A DNA stretch of 64,000 nt from an uncultured Alphaproteobacteria bacterium. Lineage in GTDB: Bacteria; Pseudomonadota; Alphaproteobacteria; RF32; CAG-239. The stretch covers positions 5,041-69,040 of the forward strand of contig CALXTU010000004.1 in NCBI GenBank assembly GCA_944391495.1. The letters are read 5' to 3'. Every line of letters starts with the position of its first letter. Position 1 is the stretch's first letter. Positions 10,902-16,420 of this stretch are shown here, one piece after another. A program made the translations under genes and the position numbers. The notes beneath the pieces are model-generated. The model did not search any database and was not told the DNA's origin. It was given only the letters and a program-made list of their open reading frames with translations.

Positions 10902-12207
10902 AGATTTGGCCGATAAAAACATCATCATCTGGGGGCTCGGCACTGAGGGCCGTGCCGTTAAAGACTACCTCGAAAAACATCGGCTCGGCCGCAATATATG
11001 GATTTATAATGATGCCGACGGCGTTGAGCGTCTGAACGAACTGGCCTCCCGGGCCGATGTTCTGGTGCGTTCTCCCGGGGTGAGTATTTATAAGCCGGAG
11101 TTTCTGCGCTTAAAGGAGCAGGGGCTTGCCATAACCTCCAGCACCAACCTGTTTTTGGCCGAGATGAAAGCCAACCGTCCGCACACCAGAGTTATCGGTG
11201 TCACCGGTTCCAAGGGTAAATCAACCAGTGTCAGCATGATGTATCATATGATGCAAGGGCTGGGGTTGAAAGTAGCCCTCGGCGGCAACATCGGTAAAGC
11301 GCTGATAGAACTGGTCGACGAGGATAACGATTACGTTATCGGCGAATTTTCGAGTTATCAGGCGTCGGATTTGGAAAATTCGCCCGATGTGGTAATGTTT
11401 ACCAACCTGTTTTCAGTGCATACCGACTGGCACGGCGGGCATGAGGGCTATTGCCGCGACAAAGTGCATCTGGCCGCCAAGGCCGGTATGGCGGTGGTTA
11501 ACGCCGAAAACGCCGAGCTGATGCACTACACGTCGGATTTGCCGCACCGTATGTTTTACCAAAAAGAGGAGGGCTTTCACGCCGTCGGCAAAGAGCTCTA
11601 TTATCAGAACGAGCCGGTCTGCAATATAGATTCGCTGCGGATAAGCGGCAATCACAACATGGCCAATCTGGCCGGCGTTATGACGGTTTTGGACTATCTG
11701 GGACTGGACTGGCGGCGGGCGTTGAGCTTTTTGCCGTCGTTTGAGCCGCTGCCGCACCGCCTGCAAAAAATCGGCCGCGTTGGCAATATCCTGTTCATCA
11801 ACGACAGCATTTCCACCGCGCCGGAAGCGGCTATCGGCGGTATGCAGAGTTTTGACGACACTATGGCGATAATATCCGGCGGAATTGAAAACAAACAGGA
11901 CTATACCGACTACGCCAAATTTATCGAGGCCAACCCCAAGGTTAAGGTGGCGGTAACGCTGTTCCAATGCGGTCATCAGATTGCCGAAAGTATCAGAAAA
12001 TATGTCCGCCGGCCGGATTTTAAATTGATTGAGGCCGAGAGCTTGCAAGAAGCTGTCAACGCCGCCTATAAAGAATTGCAAAAAGTCGGCGGCACGCTGG
12101 TTTTGTTCTCGCCGACAGCGCCGAGTTTCGGCTATTACAAAAACTTTATGGAGCGCGGCGAAGACTTTATTAATTGTGTTAAAAAGCTTGCCGCCGGTGT
12201 CAAATAA
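10891..12207 (+). CDS. murD: Mur ligase family protein, MurD-like
   Basis: GLGTEG, the GVTGSKGKST P-loop, EFSSYQ and NDSISTAP motifs are present. The AGGAG ribosome-binding site and start overlap the 3' end of the channel gene by 11 nt. Confidence 0.65.
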   Translation: MLIKDLADKNIIIWGLGTEGRAVKDYLEKHRLGRNIWIYNDADGVERLNELASRADVLVRSPGVSIYKPEFLRLKEQGLAITSSTNLFLAEMKANRPHTRVIGVTGSKGKSTSVSMMYHMMQGLGLKVALGGNIGKALIELVDEDNDYVIGEFSSYQASDLENSPDVVMFTNLFSVHTDWHGGHEGYCRDKVHLAAKAGMAVVNAENAELMHYTSDLPHRMFYQKEEGFHAVGKELYYQNEPVCNIDSLRISGNHNMANLAGVMTVLDYLGLDWRRALSFLPSFEPLPHRLQKIGRVGNILFINDSISTAPEAAIGGMQSFDDTMAIISGGIENKQDYTDYAKFIEANPKVKVAVTLFQCGHQIAESIRKYVRRPDFKLIEAESLQEAVNAAYKELQKVGGTLVLFSPTAPSFGYYKNFMERGEDFINCVKKLAAGVK

Positions 12208-12209
12208 AA

Positions 12210-12233
12210 AAACACCCGTACGGGTGTTTTTTT
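12210..12233 (+). terminator. Rho-independent terminator
   Basis: acacccg-ta-cgggtgt hairpin followed by a T-tract. Confidence 0.7.
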
Positions 12234-12257
12234 ATAAAAATGGTGCGAGATACTATG

Positions 12258-12290
12258 CAATTATCGGACTAATTTTTATAATGATTTTAA
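12258..12290. repeat. Direct repeat flanking fic (left)
   Basis: gcaattatcggactaatttttat recurs, 23 nt perfect, at 13026-13059. Confidence 0.7.
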
Positions 12291-12392
12291 ACAGCTTTAC
12301 CATAAAATTGAACTTATTAATTGTTAGATTTCTAATAATCATCATTAAAACTTAATTGCTTTTTAGTTTTTTATGTTTAAAATTAAATAAAC

Positions 12393-13019
12393 GTGAAAAA
12401 GAGGGAAATAATGGTTTTAGAAAATAAGTTAAATATCACCAATCAATTAGAGTTGAATAAAATAGAAGAAAAGCTTAGTAAAGAAAAAGCTAAAAAACTT
12501 TTTGACAGTGGTAAAATAAATACTCTTAGAGTCGGTACTTTTGCCGGATTGAAGCAGATTCACAAATTTTTATTTGAAGATATTTATGATTTTGCCGGAA
12601 AAATACGGACTGTTAATCTTTCTAAAGGAAATTTTAGATTTGCGCCGGTTATGTACTTAGAGCAAGCCTTAAAACATATAGATAAAATGCCCCAATCAAC
12701 CTTTGATGAAATTGTTGAAAAATATGTTGAAATGAATATAGCTCATCCTTTTAGAGAAGGAAATGGTCGCGCTACCCGAATTTGGCTGGATTTAATCTTC
12801 AAAAAAGAACTAAAAATGGTGGTTGATTGGAATAAAATTGATAAATCCGACTATCTGTCCGCTATGGAAAGAAGCCCAATTAAAGATATTGAAATAAAAC
12901 ATCTCTTAAAAAATGCCCTTACTGATAGAATTAATGAAAGAGAAGTATTCATGAAAGGAATTGATGTTAGTTATTATTACGAAGGCTATGATGAATACGA
13001 CATCCATAAGCTGATGTAA
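12393..13019 (+). CDS. fic: Fic/Doc family protein (AMPylator-type)
   Basis: Canonical HPFREGNGR Fic motif. Size and layout resemble E. coli Fic. An alternative start exists at 12411. Confidence 0.85.
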
Positions 13020-13025
13020 GATTAA

Positions 13026-13059
13026 GCAATTATCGGACTAATTTTTATGATAATTTTAA
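13026..13059. repeat. Direct repeat flanking fic (right)
   Basis: See left copy. Confidence 0.7.
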
Positions 13060-13412
13060 GCTTTTGAGTAAGAAAATTGAAAATTGTATGCGATGATTGG
13101 CTTACCTTGAGGATATATATTTCTTTTTATCTCTTTTGAATTTTTATAAATTATTTCTTGTAACAAAGTTCCATCAGGCCTGTAACCTCGACTAATGCCA
13201 TCCATTTTGCCGTTTTTATACTGAGCCTCCAAAAGAACTTTTCCATTCGGATAATAGACATACACAATACCATTTATAGGTTCTTTATTAACATTATAGC
13301 GTATTCCATCTATTAGTTTTGTATTTTCCATAGTATACCTATCTTGAGCTAAACAATTACAGCTCAAGATAGATATAAAAAAAATGATTTTCAAAATATT
13401 ATTCATCTTCAA
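13056..13412 (-). CDS. YwqK-family (MORN-variant repeat) secreted protein, immunity-like
   Basis: Signal peptide followed by repeated YxNGK...G..Y units (YYPNGKVLLEAQYKNGKMDG...). Confidence 0.55.
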   Translation of the reverse strand: MKMNNILKIIFFISILSCNCLAQDRYTMENTKLIDGIRYNVNKEPINGIVYVYYPNGKVLLEAQYKNGKMDGISRGYRPDGTLLQEIIYKNSKEIKRNIYPQGKPIIAYNFQFSYSKA

Positions 13413-14337
13413 CTAAATGTTTACATTTTTTCCATTCTTTATGAATATTATCATAAAAATACCAGTTTTCTTTAACATTTTCTGCATATCCTAAAATGTC
13501 AGTACTGGCAGCATTGATACTAGGATAGCTTTTGCCGTTTTTGGGGCAAATGATTTTATCTCCTTCTTTTTTTAATTCGTAGATATTTCCTTTTTGATTA
13601 CCCCTTTTCATACTTCTTTTAATAATGGTCCCTTCGGGAATTTTTTTAGTATCAATTTGACCTTTATATGTTCTGAATATCGGAGAAACAAACTCGGAAA
13701 TAACATCTTTATTATCAGTTTTAAGCTCAGGAGTATTTTCAAATTTTTTAGCATCAAAATTGAAATCTATAGGTGTTTGTAACAAATTCTCATATTTTTC
13801 GGAGAATGTGACACCATCTTGAATATAGTGTATTAAATCAATTAAATTATTAAGATCTGTTCTATATGGAAGTATTAAAGAGTCTTCATATCCATTTGAT
13901 TCTCGAGTTTCTAATTCTGTAGATATAAAATCCCTACATACATTTAATATATTATAAACTTTTTGAATCTCTTTGATTGTTCTTGCAAGTTTTGGATTTG
14001 TTGTTGTTGCTAATAATTCATATTCTCCATTTTCTAAAGCAGAATAAATTTCATAAGTATCTTGTTTTTTTACAATAATATTAGATTGAGGAATGTTATT
14101 ATATGTTTGTATTAAATCAAGCATCAATTGGCAAGCTAATGCTTGTTTTCCTAATTTTGATATATCGGTTCTTCCTGATAGCCAATTATTTGCGGTAGAT
14201 TCGGAAACATCTAATAAATTAGAAATTTCTTCAGCATCACTATGTTTGTTTAAGTCAAAATTATCAACATCAATAGCTTTATTTTTTGCTATTTCTTTTA
14301 AAAATTTTTCAGCTTCATAATATGTAAAGTTTTTCAT
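13399..14337 (-). CDS. HTH (XRE-like) domain protein with unknown C-terminal domain
   Basis: A helix-turn-helix at about residues 30-65. The 3' end overlaps the ywqK-like gene. Confidence 0.45.
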   Translation of the reverse strand: MKNFTYYEAEKFLKEIAKNKAIDVDNFDLNKHSDAEEISNLLDVSESTANNWLSGRTDISKLGKQALACQLMLDLIQTYNNIPQSNIIVKKQDTYEIYSALENGEYELLATTTNPKLARTIKEIQKVYNILNVCRDFISTELETRESNGYEDSLILPYRTDLNNLIDLIHYIQDGVTFSEKYENLLQTPIDFNFDAKKFENTPELKTDNKDVISEFVSPIFRTYKGQIDTKKIPEGTIIKRSMKRGNQKGNIYELKKEGDKIICPKNGKSYPSINAASTDILGYAENVKENWYFYDNIHKEWKKCKHLVEDE

Positions 14338-14649
14338 GTTTTTCTCCTAAAAAATATTAAATATGCAAAACATATGCATTATTTTTTATAAAATGTCAAT
14401 AGCAATTTTATTACTTTTTAATAAATGCTACAATTCATTAATGAAAAAATAAAACTATTAGCGCTGTTTTATTTATTTTTTCATTATACTTATAAAAAAT
14501 ATCACATTTTATATGATTGGAATTTGAAATGGTAAATTATAAAAGCTTTATTTTCTTAGTTTTCGCTTAAAAAGTCCGATAAGTTTATAAAAATCGTCAA
14601 ATTAAAAACATCTAAAATCGGACTGATTGAAATCCTTGGAATACATACA

Positions 14650-14676
14650 AAAAAAGCACCTCAAAGGGTGCATTAT
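14650..14676 (-). terminator. Terminator downstream of tRNA-Thr
   Basis: gcaccctttgaggtgc hairpin followed by a T-tract on the minus strand. Confidence 0.5.
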
Positions 14677-14682
14677 CAAAAA

Positions 14683-14758
14683 TGGTGCCGCAGAGTGGAC
14701 TCGAACCACCGACCTATTGATTACGAATCAATTGCTCTACCAGCTGAGCTACTACGGC
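14683..14758 (-). tRNA. tRNA-Thr (anticodon CGU)
   Basis: A cloverleaf can be drawn by hand: a 7-bp acceptor stem, anticodon loop TTCGTAA, a GGTTCGAGTCC T-arm and an encoded CCA. Confidence 0.9.
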
Positions 14759-14903
14759 ATCAGGCAAATTCGGAAACCCTTTTATTATACTTTTTTTCTT
14801 TTTGCAAGTCTTTTTATGCGGTTTGTGATTTTTGCAGTAATTTAATTCTCTTGAAAAATTGTTTTTACGAACTTTCGCCGATAGGTTACGGAACTTTGTT
14901 GTA

Positions 14904-14934
14904 GAAAAGACCCCCTGAGTTTTTGCTCAGGGTT
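14904..14934 (-). terminator. Terminator after dut
   Basis: ccctgagcaaaaactcaggg hairpin followed by a T-rich tail on the minus strand. Confidence 0.5.
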
Positions 14935-14940
14935 TCTTTT

Positions 14941-15390
14941 TCATCTGATGCCGCTGGAGCCGAAACCTTTGCCGCCGCGCTCGGTTTCGCTCAAAATTTC
15001 CGCCGCGCAAACCTCCGGCTTAAAAACCGGACACACCACAATCTGCGCGATTCTGTCCAGCGGTTTTATTTCAAAATCAAAATCGTTAAAGTTCATGATA
15101 TTGACCTTTATTTCGCCGCGATAAGCGGCGTCAACCGTACCGAACTGGGCGATAACGCCGTTTTTGGTCAGTCCGGAACGCGGCCGGATCTGAATTTCGG
15201 CCGACCAGCCGTCCGCGGCCGGATACCCCGTCAGCTCCAGACATATTCCGGCCGGAATGGTGGCGATTCCCTTGGCCGGAATAATCCACGATTCGTCAAT
15301 TGCGGCACGAATGTCATAACCGCTGTCGCCGTCTTTGGATGCAAGCGGCGGCAGGCTTGAGTTTAAGTATTTCACTTTTAGTTGCATCAA
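14941..15390 (-). CDS. dut: dUTP diphosphatase
   Basis: dUTPase motifs are present (AGxDLR-like, GLT/VxG, RSGxG, the C-terminal motif V). Confidence 0.9.
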   Translation of the reverse strand: MMQLKVKYLNSSLPPLASKDGDSGYDIRAAIDESWIIPAKGIATIPAGICLELTGYPAADGWSAEIQIRPRSGLTKNGVIAQFGTVDAAYRGEIKVNIMNFNDFDFEIKPLDRIAQIVVCPVFKPEVCAAEILSETERGGKGFGSSGIR

Positions 15391-15558
15391 TTCGTCTCCT
15401 GATTGAAATTAACTTTATATTAACCGGATATTACTAATCTGACAATGCCAAACATAAACATACCAAAATATACTTTATTAGTATTTTGAAATATTTTGTG
15501 ACTTGGCAACGACTAAAAATTGCAATAGTCTGTTTTGCGTAGTCAGAAAAAGGCTACG

Positions 15559-15574
15559 TTGTTAAATTTAACAA
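15559..15574. promoter_or_regulatory. Perfect 16-bp palindrome TTGTTAAATTTAACAA just upstream of the OMP gene's ribosome-binding site
   Basis: Perfect inverted repeat 16 nt upstream of ATG 15590. Confidence 0.4.
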
Positions 15575-15589
15575 ACAAGGAGACTTTTT

Positions 15590-16387
15590 ATGAAATTTAG
15601 AACTATGTTGCTTGCTTCTGCAGCAGTTATGTTTACTTCTTCCGCTTTTGCGGCGGATATTACCAATCCGTTCTTCCTGCCGACACAGGGCAAATTCCTG
15701 TCCGACACATCTGTAGAGTTCTCTCGTGTTAAATGGGAAGGCGAAGACGGCGGTGCTTCTAAAGATTTGTATGCCAATGAGAGATTGTCTTTTGGTTTGA
15801 CCGATAATTTGGCTGTATTTGCTAGCATTGGTAATACTTTTGATTATGATAAGAGTGAAACTTTGAACAACGACCACAACTTCGATTATGAGTTGGGTGT
15901 TGCTTATAACCACAACTTTGGCAAAGTTTTGACTCAGGTTGGTGCTTCTTATTGGACATATGATCCGCAGAGCTGGTATGGACAGAATTACAGCGATGAT
16001 GAGATGGGCGACCGTTGGGAAAAAGAAATCAACGCTCACGTAATGTTGGGTTATGCGATGGATTGCGGTTTCACGCCGTACACCTCTTTCTCGGTTAATG
16101 CCGATATTGACAGAGACAACAACGAGCAGAGATATGCTTGGTTTGTCGGCGCTCACAAAGCCTGGAGCAAAGCTTCGGTTGACGGCGGTTTCCGTTATGA
16201 ATTCGGTGACGAAGAGGAAGATAGAGGCGACGGCCACAACGAGGATCTGTACCTCCAGTTGGCGGCTAACTACTTCGTAACCGACAACTTCACCGTTGGT
16301 GTATATGGCGACTACAATTTGATGCCTGAAGACAAAGATACAAAATATGACTACACCATTGGTTTGAATGCCAAAGTATTGTTCTAA
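15590..16387 (+). CDS. Outer-membrane beta-barrel protein (porin/surface antigen-like)
   Basis: Signal peptide, alternating amphipathic strands rich in Y/G/D/N, and a C-terminal Phe. Confidence 0.65.
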   Translation: MKFRTMLLASAAVMFTSSAFAADITNPFFLPTQGKFLSDTSVEFSRVKWEGEDGGASKDLYANERLSFGLTDNLAVFASIGNTFDYDKSETLNNDHNFDYELGVAYNHNFGKVLTQVGASYWTYDPQSWYGQNYSDDEMGDRWEKEINAHVMLGYAMDCGFTPYTSFSVNADIDRDNNEQRYAWFVGAHKAWSKASVDGGFRYEFGDEEEDRGDGHNEDLYLQLAANYFVTDNFTVGVYGDYNLMPEDKDTKYDYTIGLNAKVLF

Positions 16388-16420
16388 ATTTCATACTGAT
16401 TCAGAATAATATTTTGAATA

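Follow-up and report, generated by a model that had tools for sequence, protein, structure and literature searches.

A probable integrase-less member of a large serine recombinase element family at the 3' end of tRNA-Thr in an uncultured gut alphaproteobacterium

Small cassettes stacked at the 3' ends of tRNA-Thr genes in uncultured gut Alphaproteobacteria, one of which lies on contig CALXTU010000004.1 (assembly GCA_944391495.1; the 64,000-nucleotide [nt] stretch analyzed is called the window hereafter), have their closest analogues in the ssrA islands of Dehalococcoides and in SCCmec/psiSCC elements. In Dehalococcoides, a large serine recombinase (LSR), the CcrB-like DsiB, uses a tRNA-like gene as its target and inserts islands of low GC content at the 3' end, as in the cassettes described here, and the islands likewise form tandem arrays with short direct repeats (PMC3146451). 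Many of them lack the integration module and have been interpreted as cis-mobilizable, which parallels the integrase-less units found here, and the 3' end of the recombinase open reading frame (ORF) always overlaps attL, so that, again as here, its stop codon and C-terminus come from the neighboring DNA (PMC3146451). The two systems differ in their target (tRNA-Thr here, tmRNA there), in the presence here of a single recombinase gene without a DsiA partner or a six-gene integration module, in the far smaller size of the present units (0.7 to 2.5 kb per cassette), and in the defined end module of ~135 nt that the integrase-less units keep. The cargo here is of defense and toxin type, whereas Dehalococcoides islands carry dehalogenases, and the hosts here are gut Alphaproteobacteria. 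SCCmec and psiSCC elements (CcrAB/CcrC) share with the cassettes the use of LSRs, the 3' end of a conserved gene as the sole chromosomal target, and stacked elements with short direct repeats, but their target is the protein gene rlmH, the elements span 20 to 60 kb, and the att site lies outside the recombinase gene. Recombinase-less SCC members, also discussed in PMC3146451, can be moved by Ccr in trans.

Likenesses exist also to CIMEs, tRNA-site accretion, and the tycheposon satellites of Prochlorococcus, in which integrase-less DNA with functional-looking att sites stands in tandem with autonomous elements; those systems, however, use tyrosine integrases and duplicate tens of nucleotides of the tRNA, whereas the enzyme here is a serine recombinase and 6 nt are duplicated. 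Integron cassettes resemble the units described here in being small, mostly single-gene, and promoter poor, in being stacked at one site and delimited by a conserved recombination-site-like repeat, and in having a recombinase that is usually encoded elsewhere. In contrast to integrons, there is no IntI, folded attC, attI, or Pc platform here, and the repeats are relics of a recombinase gene. In 2015, the authors of Islander stated that no serine integrase was known to have a tRNA gene as its target (PMC4383910). We found no later paper describing the cassette family in an incomplete search of the literature, and the family is seemingly undescribed.

The element in the window is an AT-rich islet of ~2.4 kb (2.44 kb as a whole unit) between the terminator of murD and the 3' end of a tRNA-Thr(CGT) gene. 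Very probably, it is an integrase-less member, with two cargo modules, of an LSR element family that occupies tRNA-Thr 3' ends in uncultured gut Alphaproteobacteria. By its sequence it reads as a mosaic of those two modules, one with a class III fic gene and the other with an orf312-MORN gene pair, joined at a relic of the recombinase tail. The GC content is ~27% at 12247 to 14677 and ~50% in the flanks. In 300-nt segments it is 0.19 to 0.33 from 12200 to 14600, against 0.49 to 0.56 in murD, which ends at 12207, and 0.50 to 0.54 in dut (14941 to 15387). These values, with the tRNA coordinates, bear out the flip to AT-rich DNA between the murD terminator and the tRNA-Thr 3' end that a first-pass annotation, made from the sequence alone, had claimed. 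Two exact 11-bp copies of AAAAATGGTGC bound the islet; the tRNA 3' end recurs, displaced, as TGGTGC in the left copy, and the right copy finishes with the terminal 6 nt of the tRNA gene, whose 3' end points towards the islet. From left to right, the features are as follows.

12204 to 12235, no strand: murD terminator, a perfect palindrome of 16+16 nt (inverted repeat I8; L001 alignment)
12236 to 12246, plus strand: left copy of the 11-bp direct repeat, attL core (direct repeat D8)
12241 to 12327, plus strand: tail relic and P' arm, from the final 28 serine recombinase codons, WCEILCNYRTNFYNDFKQLYHKIELINC and a stop (translation; tblastn)
12411 to 13019, plus strand: fic, class III Fic AMP-transferase of 202 amino acids (aa) (NCBIfam; PDB identity; PADLOC)
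13022 to 13093, plus strand: core-less second tail relic, ending in CNYRTNFYDNFKLLSKKIENCMR and a stop (37-nt repeat D1; tblastn)
13056 to 13406, minus strand: MORN_2-repeat protein, 116 aa from ATG (Pfam PF07661; alignment A5)
13399 to 14337, minus strand: orf312, 312 aa, with a probable N-terminal helix-turn-helix (HTH), a conserved middle, and a variable C-terminal domain (25 homologues; alignment A3)
14560 to 14677, plus strand: right-end module, a non-coding recombinase relic (alignment A2; 55 satellite ends; terminator scan)
14678 to 14688, plus strand: right copy of the 11-bp repeat, attR core (D8; tRNA coordinates)
14683 to 14758, minus strand: tRNA-Thr(CGT), integration target and B' arm (ARAGORN; Rfam RF00005, 71.4 bits)

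The first three of these make up attL. The islet retains both att-type ends without a recombinase, and its right end fits the consensus of 55 satellite ends. An Rfam scan passed the tRNA alone, the remaining hits all lying below gathering scores, and a promoter scan was uninformative, with fewer consensus sites than in shuffles.

We compared 38 loci encoding MurD relatives with the window, the closest database relatives being metagenome-assembled genomes labeled "uncultured Alphaproteobacteria" or "Proteobacteria bacterium CAG:495." Among species-level relatives whose junction is intact, L001 is the closest (MurD 92% at the amino acid level, murD ~82% at the nucleotide level); in it, murD, the terminator, and tRNA-Thr on the minus strand are contiguous. 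The terminator, the host-side arm of the left junction, there adjoins the tRNA 3' end directly, and L001 thus shows the empty site. Alignment of L001 to the window runs through 12246, diverges, and resumes at 14650, and the L001 junction carries no deletion scar. The uninterrupted L001 site and the flanking 11-bp repeat confirm the island that the first-pass annotation had placed at the tRNA-Thr 3' end. The opposite pattern, with the same genes beside tRNA-Thr in all relatives and no enrichment of the motif described below at the boundaries, was not observed: fic, the MORN gene, and orf312 are absent from all 38 loci, and the motif is concentrated at the boundaries. A second relative, L002 (MurD 93%), has an unrelated insert of ~1 kb at the same murD/tRNA-Thr junction (L002 11364 to 12369) with none of the motifs of the cassette family, which makes the site a hotspot for insertions of different kinds. 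The L002 insert encodes a RelE/HigB-like fragment and a HigA-like antitoxin at a host-like GC content of 0.44.

The motif in question recurs in the islet at the places first reported and is strongly overrepresented in the window. Two copies are exact (12261 to 12274 and 13030 to 13043), one has a single mismatch (14615 to 14628), and one is inverted with two mismatches (14569 to 14582). With up to two mismatches allowed, the whole window contains 8 hits against 1.79 expected, a number reached in 0 of 100 shuffles. The exact 8-mer ATCGGACT occurs six times on both strands of the 64 kb, four times inside the 2.4-kb islet. On either side of fic stands a 37-nt direct repeat (92% identity between its copies) that contains the first two motif copies, and the motif recurs around orf312 homologues in AT-rich islands of other hosts (~35 to 50% GC). 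Aligned, the copies proved to be part of a longer conserved repeat starting with TGGTGC. Its TGG-frame translation is WCAILCxYRTxNYEDFKxLxRKIE..., and in at least 8 loci the ORF extends upstream, as KPFDKLLKTPEINK, into a protein of 551 to 588 aa. The 551-aa ORF of locus L130 has the Pfam domains Resolvase, Recombinase, and Zn_ribbon_recom, all three above cutoff, and it ends in the repeat, which supplies its final codons. Judged by their sequence, these repeat-bearing ORFs are LSRs. At least 416 relatives of the recombinase were found, and a phmmer search of PDB sequences with it returned no related solved structure.

A metagenome scan with TGGTGCGMGATACTRTGC gave 120 loci, of which 72 carry the full repeat; about 48 hits to this 18-mer without the rest of the repeat were discarded as chance matches. 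Viral contigs had no match to the repeat. The tail relic of the window reads in frame like the 72 loci (WC(A/E)ILCxYRT...), and each motif copy corresponds to recombinase codons: TAT CGG ACT, or YRT, of the tail at 12261 and 13030; TTA TCG GAC TG, or LSDC, at 14615 (motif B, AAAATCGGACT, 14615 to 14628); and AAA AGT CCG ATA A, or KSPI(I), at the inverted copy (motif C, AAAAGTCCGATAA, 14569 to 14582). In tblastn searches the L130 integrase matched the relics at 12238 to 12312 (E = 3e-5) and 13022 to 13093, and at 14560 to 14690 the DNA shows homology to the integrase body over its final ~170 nt, a hairpin having replaced ~22 nt (alignment A2). No integrase gene was detected by tblastn in the islet or elsewhere in the 64-kb window, so that the earlier statement that no integrase remains holds, with relics only.

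These identities bear on two other views of the repeat. The copies might be operators of the HTH-like orf312 protein, regulating fic and itself, given that one lies ~130 nt upstream of fic, that an inverted pair lies ~230 to 290 nt upstream of orf312, and that orf312 probably has an HTH. The same copies, however, occur in dozens of cassettes without orf312 and form codons (KSPII, LSDC, and YRT) in intact recombinase genes, one copy falls inside the T-arm of tRNA-Thr(GGT), and the 13030 copy sits between two convergent gene ends. We consider this explanation improbable; because the motif is present in cassettes without the HTH gene, it is not a regulator operator. The first-pass annotation had offered att or regulator sites, and of the two the att site stands, as a relic of the recombinase gene 3' end and its att site. 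With its 5-6-5 palindromic appearance at 12259 to 12274 (AATTA-TCGGAC-TAATT), and with a single repeat in each intergenic region of the cassette-like arrays, the motif could instead recall an Xer/dif-type module or an integron-like cassette with the palindrome as the recombinase core site. We regard this as extremely improbable, as the family as a whole keeps only ATCGGACT and not the palindromic arms, as the repeat is LSR coding sequence, and as no IntI, attC-like structure, or dif-like 11-6-11 consensus was found. A tRNA-like fragment was also considered for the motif and rejected, the sequence being unable to form a T-arm.

The element family is tied to tRNA-Thr. Among 34 tRNA genes in motif-bearing loci, 30 are tRNA-Thr (25 GGT and 5 CGT), and their 3' ends are adjoined by three kinds of sequence, namely, the integrase body, an integrase-less right-end module, or plain host flank. 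In L074, L115, L158, and L159 the integrase body is fused to the tRNA, with the codons K-W-C reading straight into it. The distal junction consists of the host terminator, AATGGTGC, and the tail, and joins inside arrays consist of a right-end module, the core, and a tail. Where an integrase body stands beside another cassette, it is completed by the tail of that cassette, as in L130. The location at a tRNA 3' end with a flanking repeat that includes tRNA bases would also be met in a classic tyrosine-integrase island that has lost its integrase, and in distant relatives the 3' half of the tRNA is indeed duplicated over 49 nt, a typical scar of tyrosine integrases. In the window, however, just 6 nt of the repeat are tRNA, both ends share homology with a serine recombinase gene at its 3' end, that recombinase gene is fused directly to the tRNA in four loci, and these ends show no consistent link to any tyrosine integrase; a tyrosine integrase is very improbable. 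The "classic island attachment point" of the first-pass annotation is accordingly right as to the tRNA 3' end and wrong as to the tyrosine integrase that it implies, since the family uses an LSR. Separately, a GC-richer segment of ~240 nt, bounded by 13- to 18-nt copies of the tRNA 3' end, lies beside tRNA-Thr(GGT) in several loci (L042 4763 to 4960; L057 598 to 830; L124 1201 to 1441 and 2713 to 2953; L140). In L124 it stands on both sides of the cassette, 96.7% identical, and it appears to give a second docking site.

We infer that an LSR catalyzed the insertion of the islet. In an autonomous element, the attP crossover would lie within AATGGTGC (the K-W-C codons) and so fall in the integrase gene itself, at the 3' end, in a region that would read CCTGAAATTGACAAATGGTGCGCGATACTGTGCAGTTATCGGACT. 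Since attP would be inside the gene, integration would split the gene between the two ends of the element. The last ~28 to 40 integrase codons would be left at the far end, which corresponds to the copy at 12261, and the integrase body, or a non-coding relic of ~135 nt, would be left against the tRNA, which corresponds to the copies at 14569 and 14615. Relics of the integrase tail stand between cargo modules, hence the copy at 13030, and the modules have been reshuffled between arrays. AATGGTGC alone is common to all four junction types (host flank/tRNA, integrase 3' end, and both hybrids), and this places the crossover within 8 bp. Excision could involve only the entire 2.44-kb unit, since there is no crossover core in the internal relic, and it would give the circle junction GGGTGCATTATCAAAAATGGTGCGAGATACTATGCAATTATCGG and the empty site GTGTTTTTTTATAAAAATGGTGCCGCAGAGTGGACTCG.

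The position of ATCGGACT points in the same direction. Its start lies 16 nt beyond TGGTGC in 60/60 distinct tails; in 7/7 tRNA-Thr(GGT) variants the distance is 11 nt. In the Listeria A118-type LSR, the zinc-ribbon motif lies at 16 to 24 in attP and at 11 to 19 in the attB half-site, and this 5-bp shift underlies directionality (PMC3783163). The like 5-bp shift of ATCGGACT suggests by analogy that in P' and B' (the tail and the tRNA T-arm) it is the zinc-ribbon recognition motif of the integrase. The analogy also suggests a crossover at the right end of AATGGTGC.

Several observations weigh against this account. The link of the islet to the recombinase consists of a relic of 25 to 28 codons (E = 3e-5) and the DNA alignment of the ends, with no integrase in the window. 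CGT genes are just 5 of the 30 tRNA-Thr targets, and 4 of those 5 belong to the species of the window. The tRNA-Thr(CGT) of the window lacks ATCGGACT at the position that it has in GGT genes and carries ..GTGGACT.. instead, ~6 nt nearer the core, and the left half-sites contain no matching inverted motif. Internal attP-like junctions in the arrays are not predicted by a strictly unidirectional attP x attB reaction, and homologous recombination between shared ends of ~100 to 200 nt may have built the arrays. Motifs B and C, although conserved in the non-coding ends, lie too far from the crossover for a minimal LSR attP. Within the species, exact MurD and Dut look-ups found all spanning contigs occupied and no empty site, and neither a circle junction nor an empty-site junction was seen among the same-species contigs.

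Integrase-less cassettes are the commonest form of the family, with 55 distinct right ends. The conserved right-end module of ~135 nt has a mean identity of just 52% across these ends. Four elements are each at least 80% conserved over the 55: AAAAGTCCGATAA, AAAATCGGACT ~45 nt further on, the hairpin, and AAAAATGGTGC. The hairpin stems vary (GCACC/GGTGC, TCCGC/GCGGA, CCTCC/GGAGG, and others) with base pairing kept. In the window the hairpin lies at 14656 to 14671 and on the minus strand is the terminator of the tRNA; since a hairpin followed by a T run stands on the tRNA strand, each cassette supplies a new tRNA terminator. Motifs B and C are codons in the intact integrase, yet they are kept in the non-coding ends, 60 to 110 nt from the crossover. 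The first-pass annotation had called the element decayed. This is correct in that the integrase is lost and relics remain, but it misses that integrase-less units with conserved ends are the usual state of the family.

A stronger form of decay would make the islet an immobile wreck of an autonomous element, its ends slowly decaying relics and the arrays products of homologous recombination and deletion in place and not of the movement of integrase-less cassettes in trans. We hold this to be possible, although doubtful. It agrees with the presence of the islet on every same-species contig, with the loss of the crossover core from the internal relic at 13022 to 13093, with the much in-place decay seen in chimeric integrase-fragment/cargo ORFs, and with a fic-plus-relic junction inherited across several loci. 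It agrees poorly with the 55 integrase-less ends, which keep their motifs and hairpin pairing despite ~50% identity between them; retention of these while the intervening sequence diverged argues for constraint. Identical module types, moreover, occur at tRNA-Thr(GGT) and tRNA-Thr(CGT) loci of different species.

Within the species of the window, the same arrangement is present on at least 7 independent spanning contigs from several samples, and the islet is therefore not an assembly artifact. The species occurs in the samples ERZ28614173, ERZ24773279, ERZ24773498, and ERR4096572, among others. Given its presence in every spanning contig and the lack of circle or empty junctions there, present-day mobility is unsupported; the islet appears fixed in the species. 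Several short-read contigs of the species (L179, L180, L184, L185, and L188) stop at window position 12233, which is 26 nt past murD and inside the palindrome, or at 14710, which is 231 nt past dut and inside the tRNA. Such stops are probably an assembler effect and not polymorphism, although coexisting alleles might lie behind them. Strain L046 has an islet ~100% identical to that of the window, in a backbone 98 to 100% identical across 13 kb. Its exceptions are the 3' half of murD (85 to 93%) and a porin-like gene at 15590 to 16387 (78 to 85%), which mark recombination tracts at window positions 11000 to 12200 and 15500 to 16400, on either side of the islet. We rejected this mosaic as evidence of islet transfer because the backbone is otherwise 98 to 100% identical, as expected of local recombination within one species.

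The tRNA-to-dut side of the locus also varies among relatives. L001 (10658 to 11824) and L002 (12649 to 13959) have an ORF of 388/436 aa between the 5' side of the tRNA and dut, built of repeated units (..RGNHEEI.., ..RGDHNEI.., and ..RGNPDEI..); the window lacks this ORF, with a gap at 14865 to 14916, and so shows a second indel at the same locus. In more distant relatives the tRNA-to-dut gap ranges from 0.2 to 8.7 kb. Comparison with window positions 14680 to 14816 showed that in L004, L006 to L010, and L036, which are among these distant relatives, tRNA-Thr(CGT) and ~60 nt upstream of it are inverted and stand just after murD. L004 and L007 have a second copy of the 3' 49 nt of the tRNA ~240 nt downstream, a tyrosine-integrase-type scar.

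The fic gene of the left module is preceded by a good Shine-Dalgarno sequence, and its call in the first-pass annotation is borne out by the NCBIfam NmFic equivalog NF046029 (320 bits against a cutoff of 230; 3.5e-96). The product matches Pfam Fic (51 bits) and the candidate defense family PDC-S04 of PADLOC (5e-107), and it is 75% identical over 199 aa to the Fic protein of Enterococcus faecalis (EfFic; PDB 5NV5). The active-site motif HxFx(D/E)GNGRxxR is intact in the translation. So is the C-terminal inhibitory motif (S/T)xxxE(G/N), which reads SYYYEG and aligns with the same residues of 5NV5. These are the catalytic motif and the C-terminal autoinhibitory SxxxEG helix of known class III Fic proteins (NmFic of Neisseria meningitidis and EfFic), and the product is predicted to be an autoinhibited toxin-like enzyme, with toxin action, defense, or regulation as its candidate roles. 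In contrast to those proteins, this one rides a mobile cassette in an alphaproteobacterium. The protein is nearer to E. faecalis Fic than to the Neisseria NmFic structures, which points to a possible cross-phylum exchange. The NmFic hit led us to look for Neisseriaceae and Pasteurellaceae DNA-uptake sequences, and none were found. The junction of fic with the core-less relic is common to L068, L077, and L134, where a different gene comes next, and in L158 fic is followed by a terminator, core, and tail.

In the right module, the start of the MORN gene overlaps the stop of orf312 by 8 nt. The MORN protein has two PF07661 repeats (42.5 bits against a cutoff of 29.6; 3.3e-11) and a conserved predicted signal peptide with a lipobox-like LLSCNC.AQ (alignment A5). 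The first-pass annotation had described a secreted YwqK/MORN protein of immunity type; the repeats and the signal peptide are there, but immunity is unsupported because the protein is predicted to be exported and has no toxin neighbor, its partner being orf312. In the window the MORN ORF exceeds its homologues by 10 codons (..YNFQFSYSKA, at 13056 to 13093); the extension reads antisense through the core-less tail relic and is thus a by-product of the fusion of the two modules.

The orf312 family is very small, with 25 clusters in a set of 5.8 billion proteins. Conservation covers the N-terminal ~180 residues; the C-terminal domain takes three forms (alignment A3). No Pfam family or domain was assigned to orf312, PADLOC and NCBIfam returned nothing for either orf312 or the MORN protein, and no toxin domain was found in orf312 with Pfam, NCBIfam, or PADLOC. 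HTH_3 and HTH_23 match residues 36 to 60 in 12 to 15 of 24 members, below the gathering score (best, 4.5e-4). The AlphaFold2 model of orf312 (pLDDT, 69.7; pTM, 0.37) is helical at this region, with low confidence, and Foldseek found nothing in the PDB at E < 0.1. An N-terminal HTH is probable, and the "HTH gene" of the first-pass annotation is present, with no family above threshold. The closest relatives of orf312 have an overlapping MORN gene downstream in every context examined, and the two genes are a conserved module, which stands alone between complete ends in L041 to L044.

Both modules recur in other arrays with other neighbors. ORFs internal to the arrays form 94 clusters, although some at array edges may be host genes. 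They include C5 and N6 DNA methylases, restriction enzymes (DpnII, IceA, NgoFVII, Mrr, GmrSD, and type I/IIG), NERD, HNH, and HD proteins, AbiLi, a PsyrT/ShosT-like phosphoribosyltransferase, RhuM-Fic, and Fic. Among these clusters no conjugation or virion genes were seen; a rolling-circle Rep-like gene occurs in two loci. In six proteins (P0070, P0074, P0084, P0085, P0088, and P0109), fragments of the recombinase are called as fused in frame to cargo domains (Fic, DpnII, NERD, N6_N4 methylase, C5 methylase, and NgoFVII), which suggests frequent deletions joining the integrase to downstream cargo.

On the available sequences, it is conceivable, and we propose it tentatively, that integrase-less cassettes of the family are moved in trans, for which the recurrence of modules across arrays and species is indirect evidence. 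A larger claim, which we consider rather unlikely, is that the family is a working integron-like capture platform composed of a serine integrase, a tRNA-Thr dock, mini-cassettes moved in trans, and a switch based on exchange of the C-terminus. In such a platform, mini-cassettes of one to three defense or toxin genes would each carry the ~135-nt end module and a tail of ~90 nt. The C-terminal 28 to 40 residues of the integrase would be swapped at each recombination because attP lies inside the gene, and the swap would act as a built-in switch between integrated and excised states.

For the window itself the message is modest: the islet, with fic and a two-gene module, now behaves like a fixed chromosomal segment and is an integrase-less remnant whose value lies in the element family, the recombinase, and the att anatomy to which it leads. 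Islands in tRNA genes are regarded as the territory of tyrosine integrases, and the cassette family adds a serine integrase lineage that targets tRNA-Thr; if the platform existed as outlined, it would be a clear case of a serine integrase targeting a tRNA gene. For the mining of serine integrases as genome-engineering tools, the family offers a natural attP/attB pair located to within 8 bp. The position of attP within the recombinase gene, which the Dehalococcoides ssrA islands share, makes it possible to test the long-standing question of whether the change of C-terminus at integration regulates directionality. A hotspot of very small restriction-modification, abortive-infection, and Fic cassettes is also a cheap marker for new defense genes, including the orf312-MORN pair.

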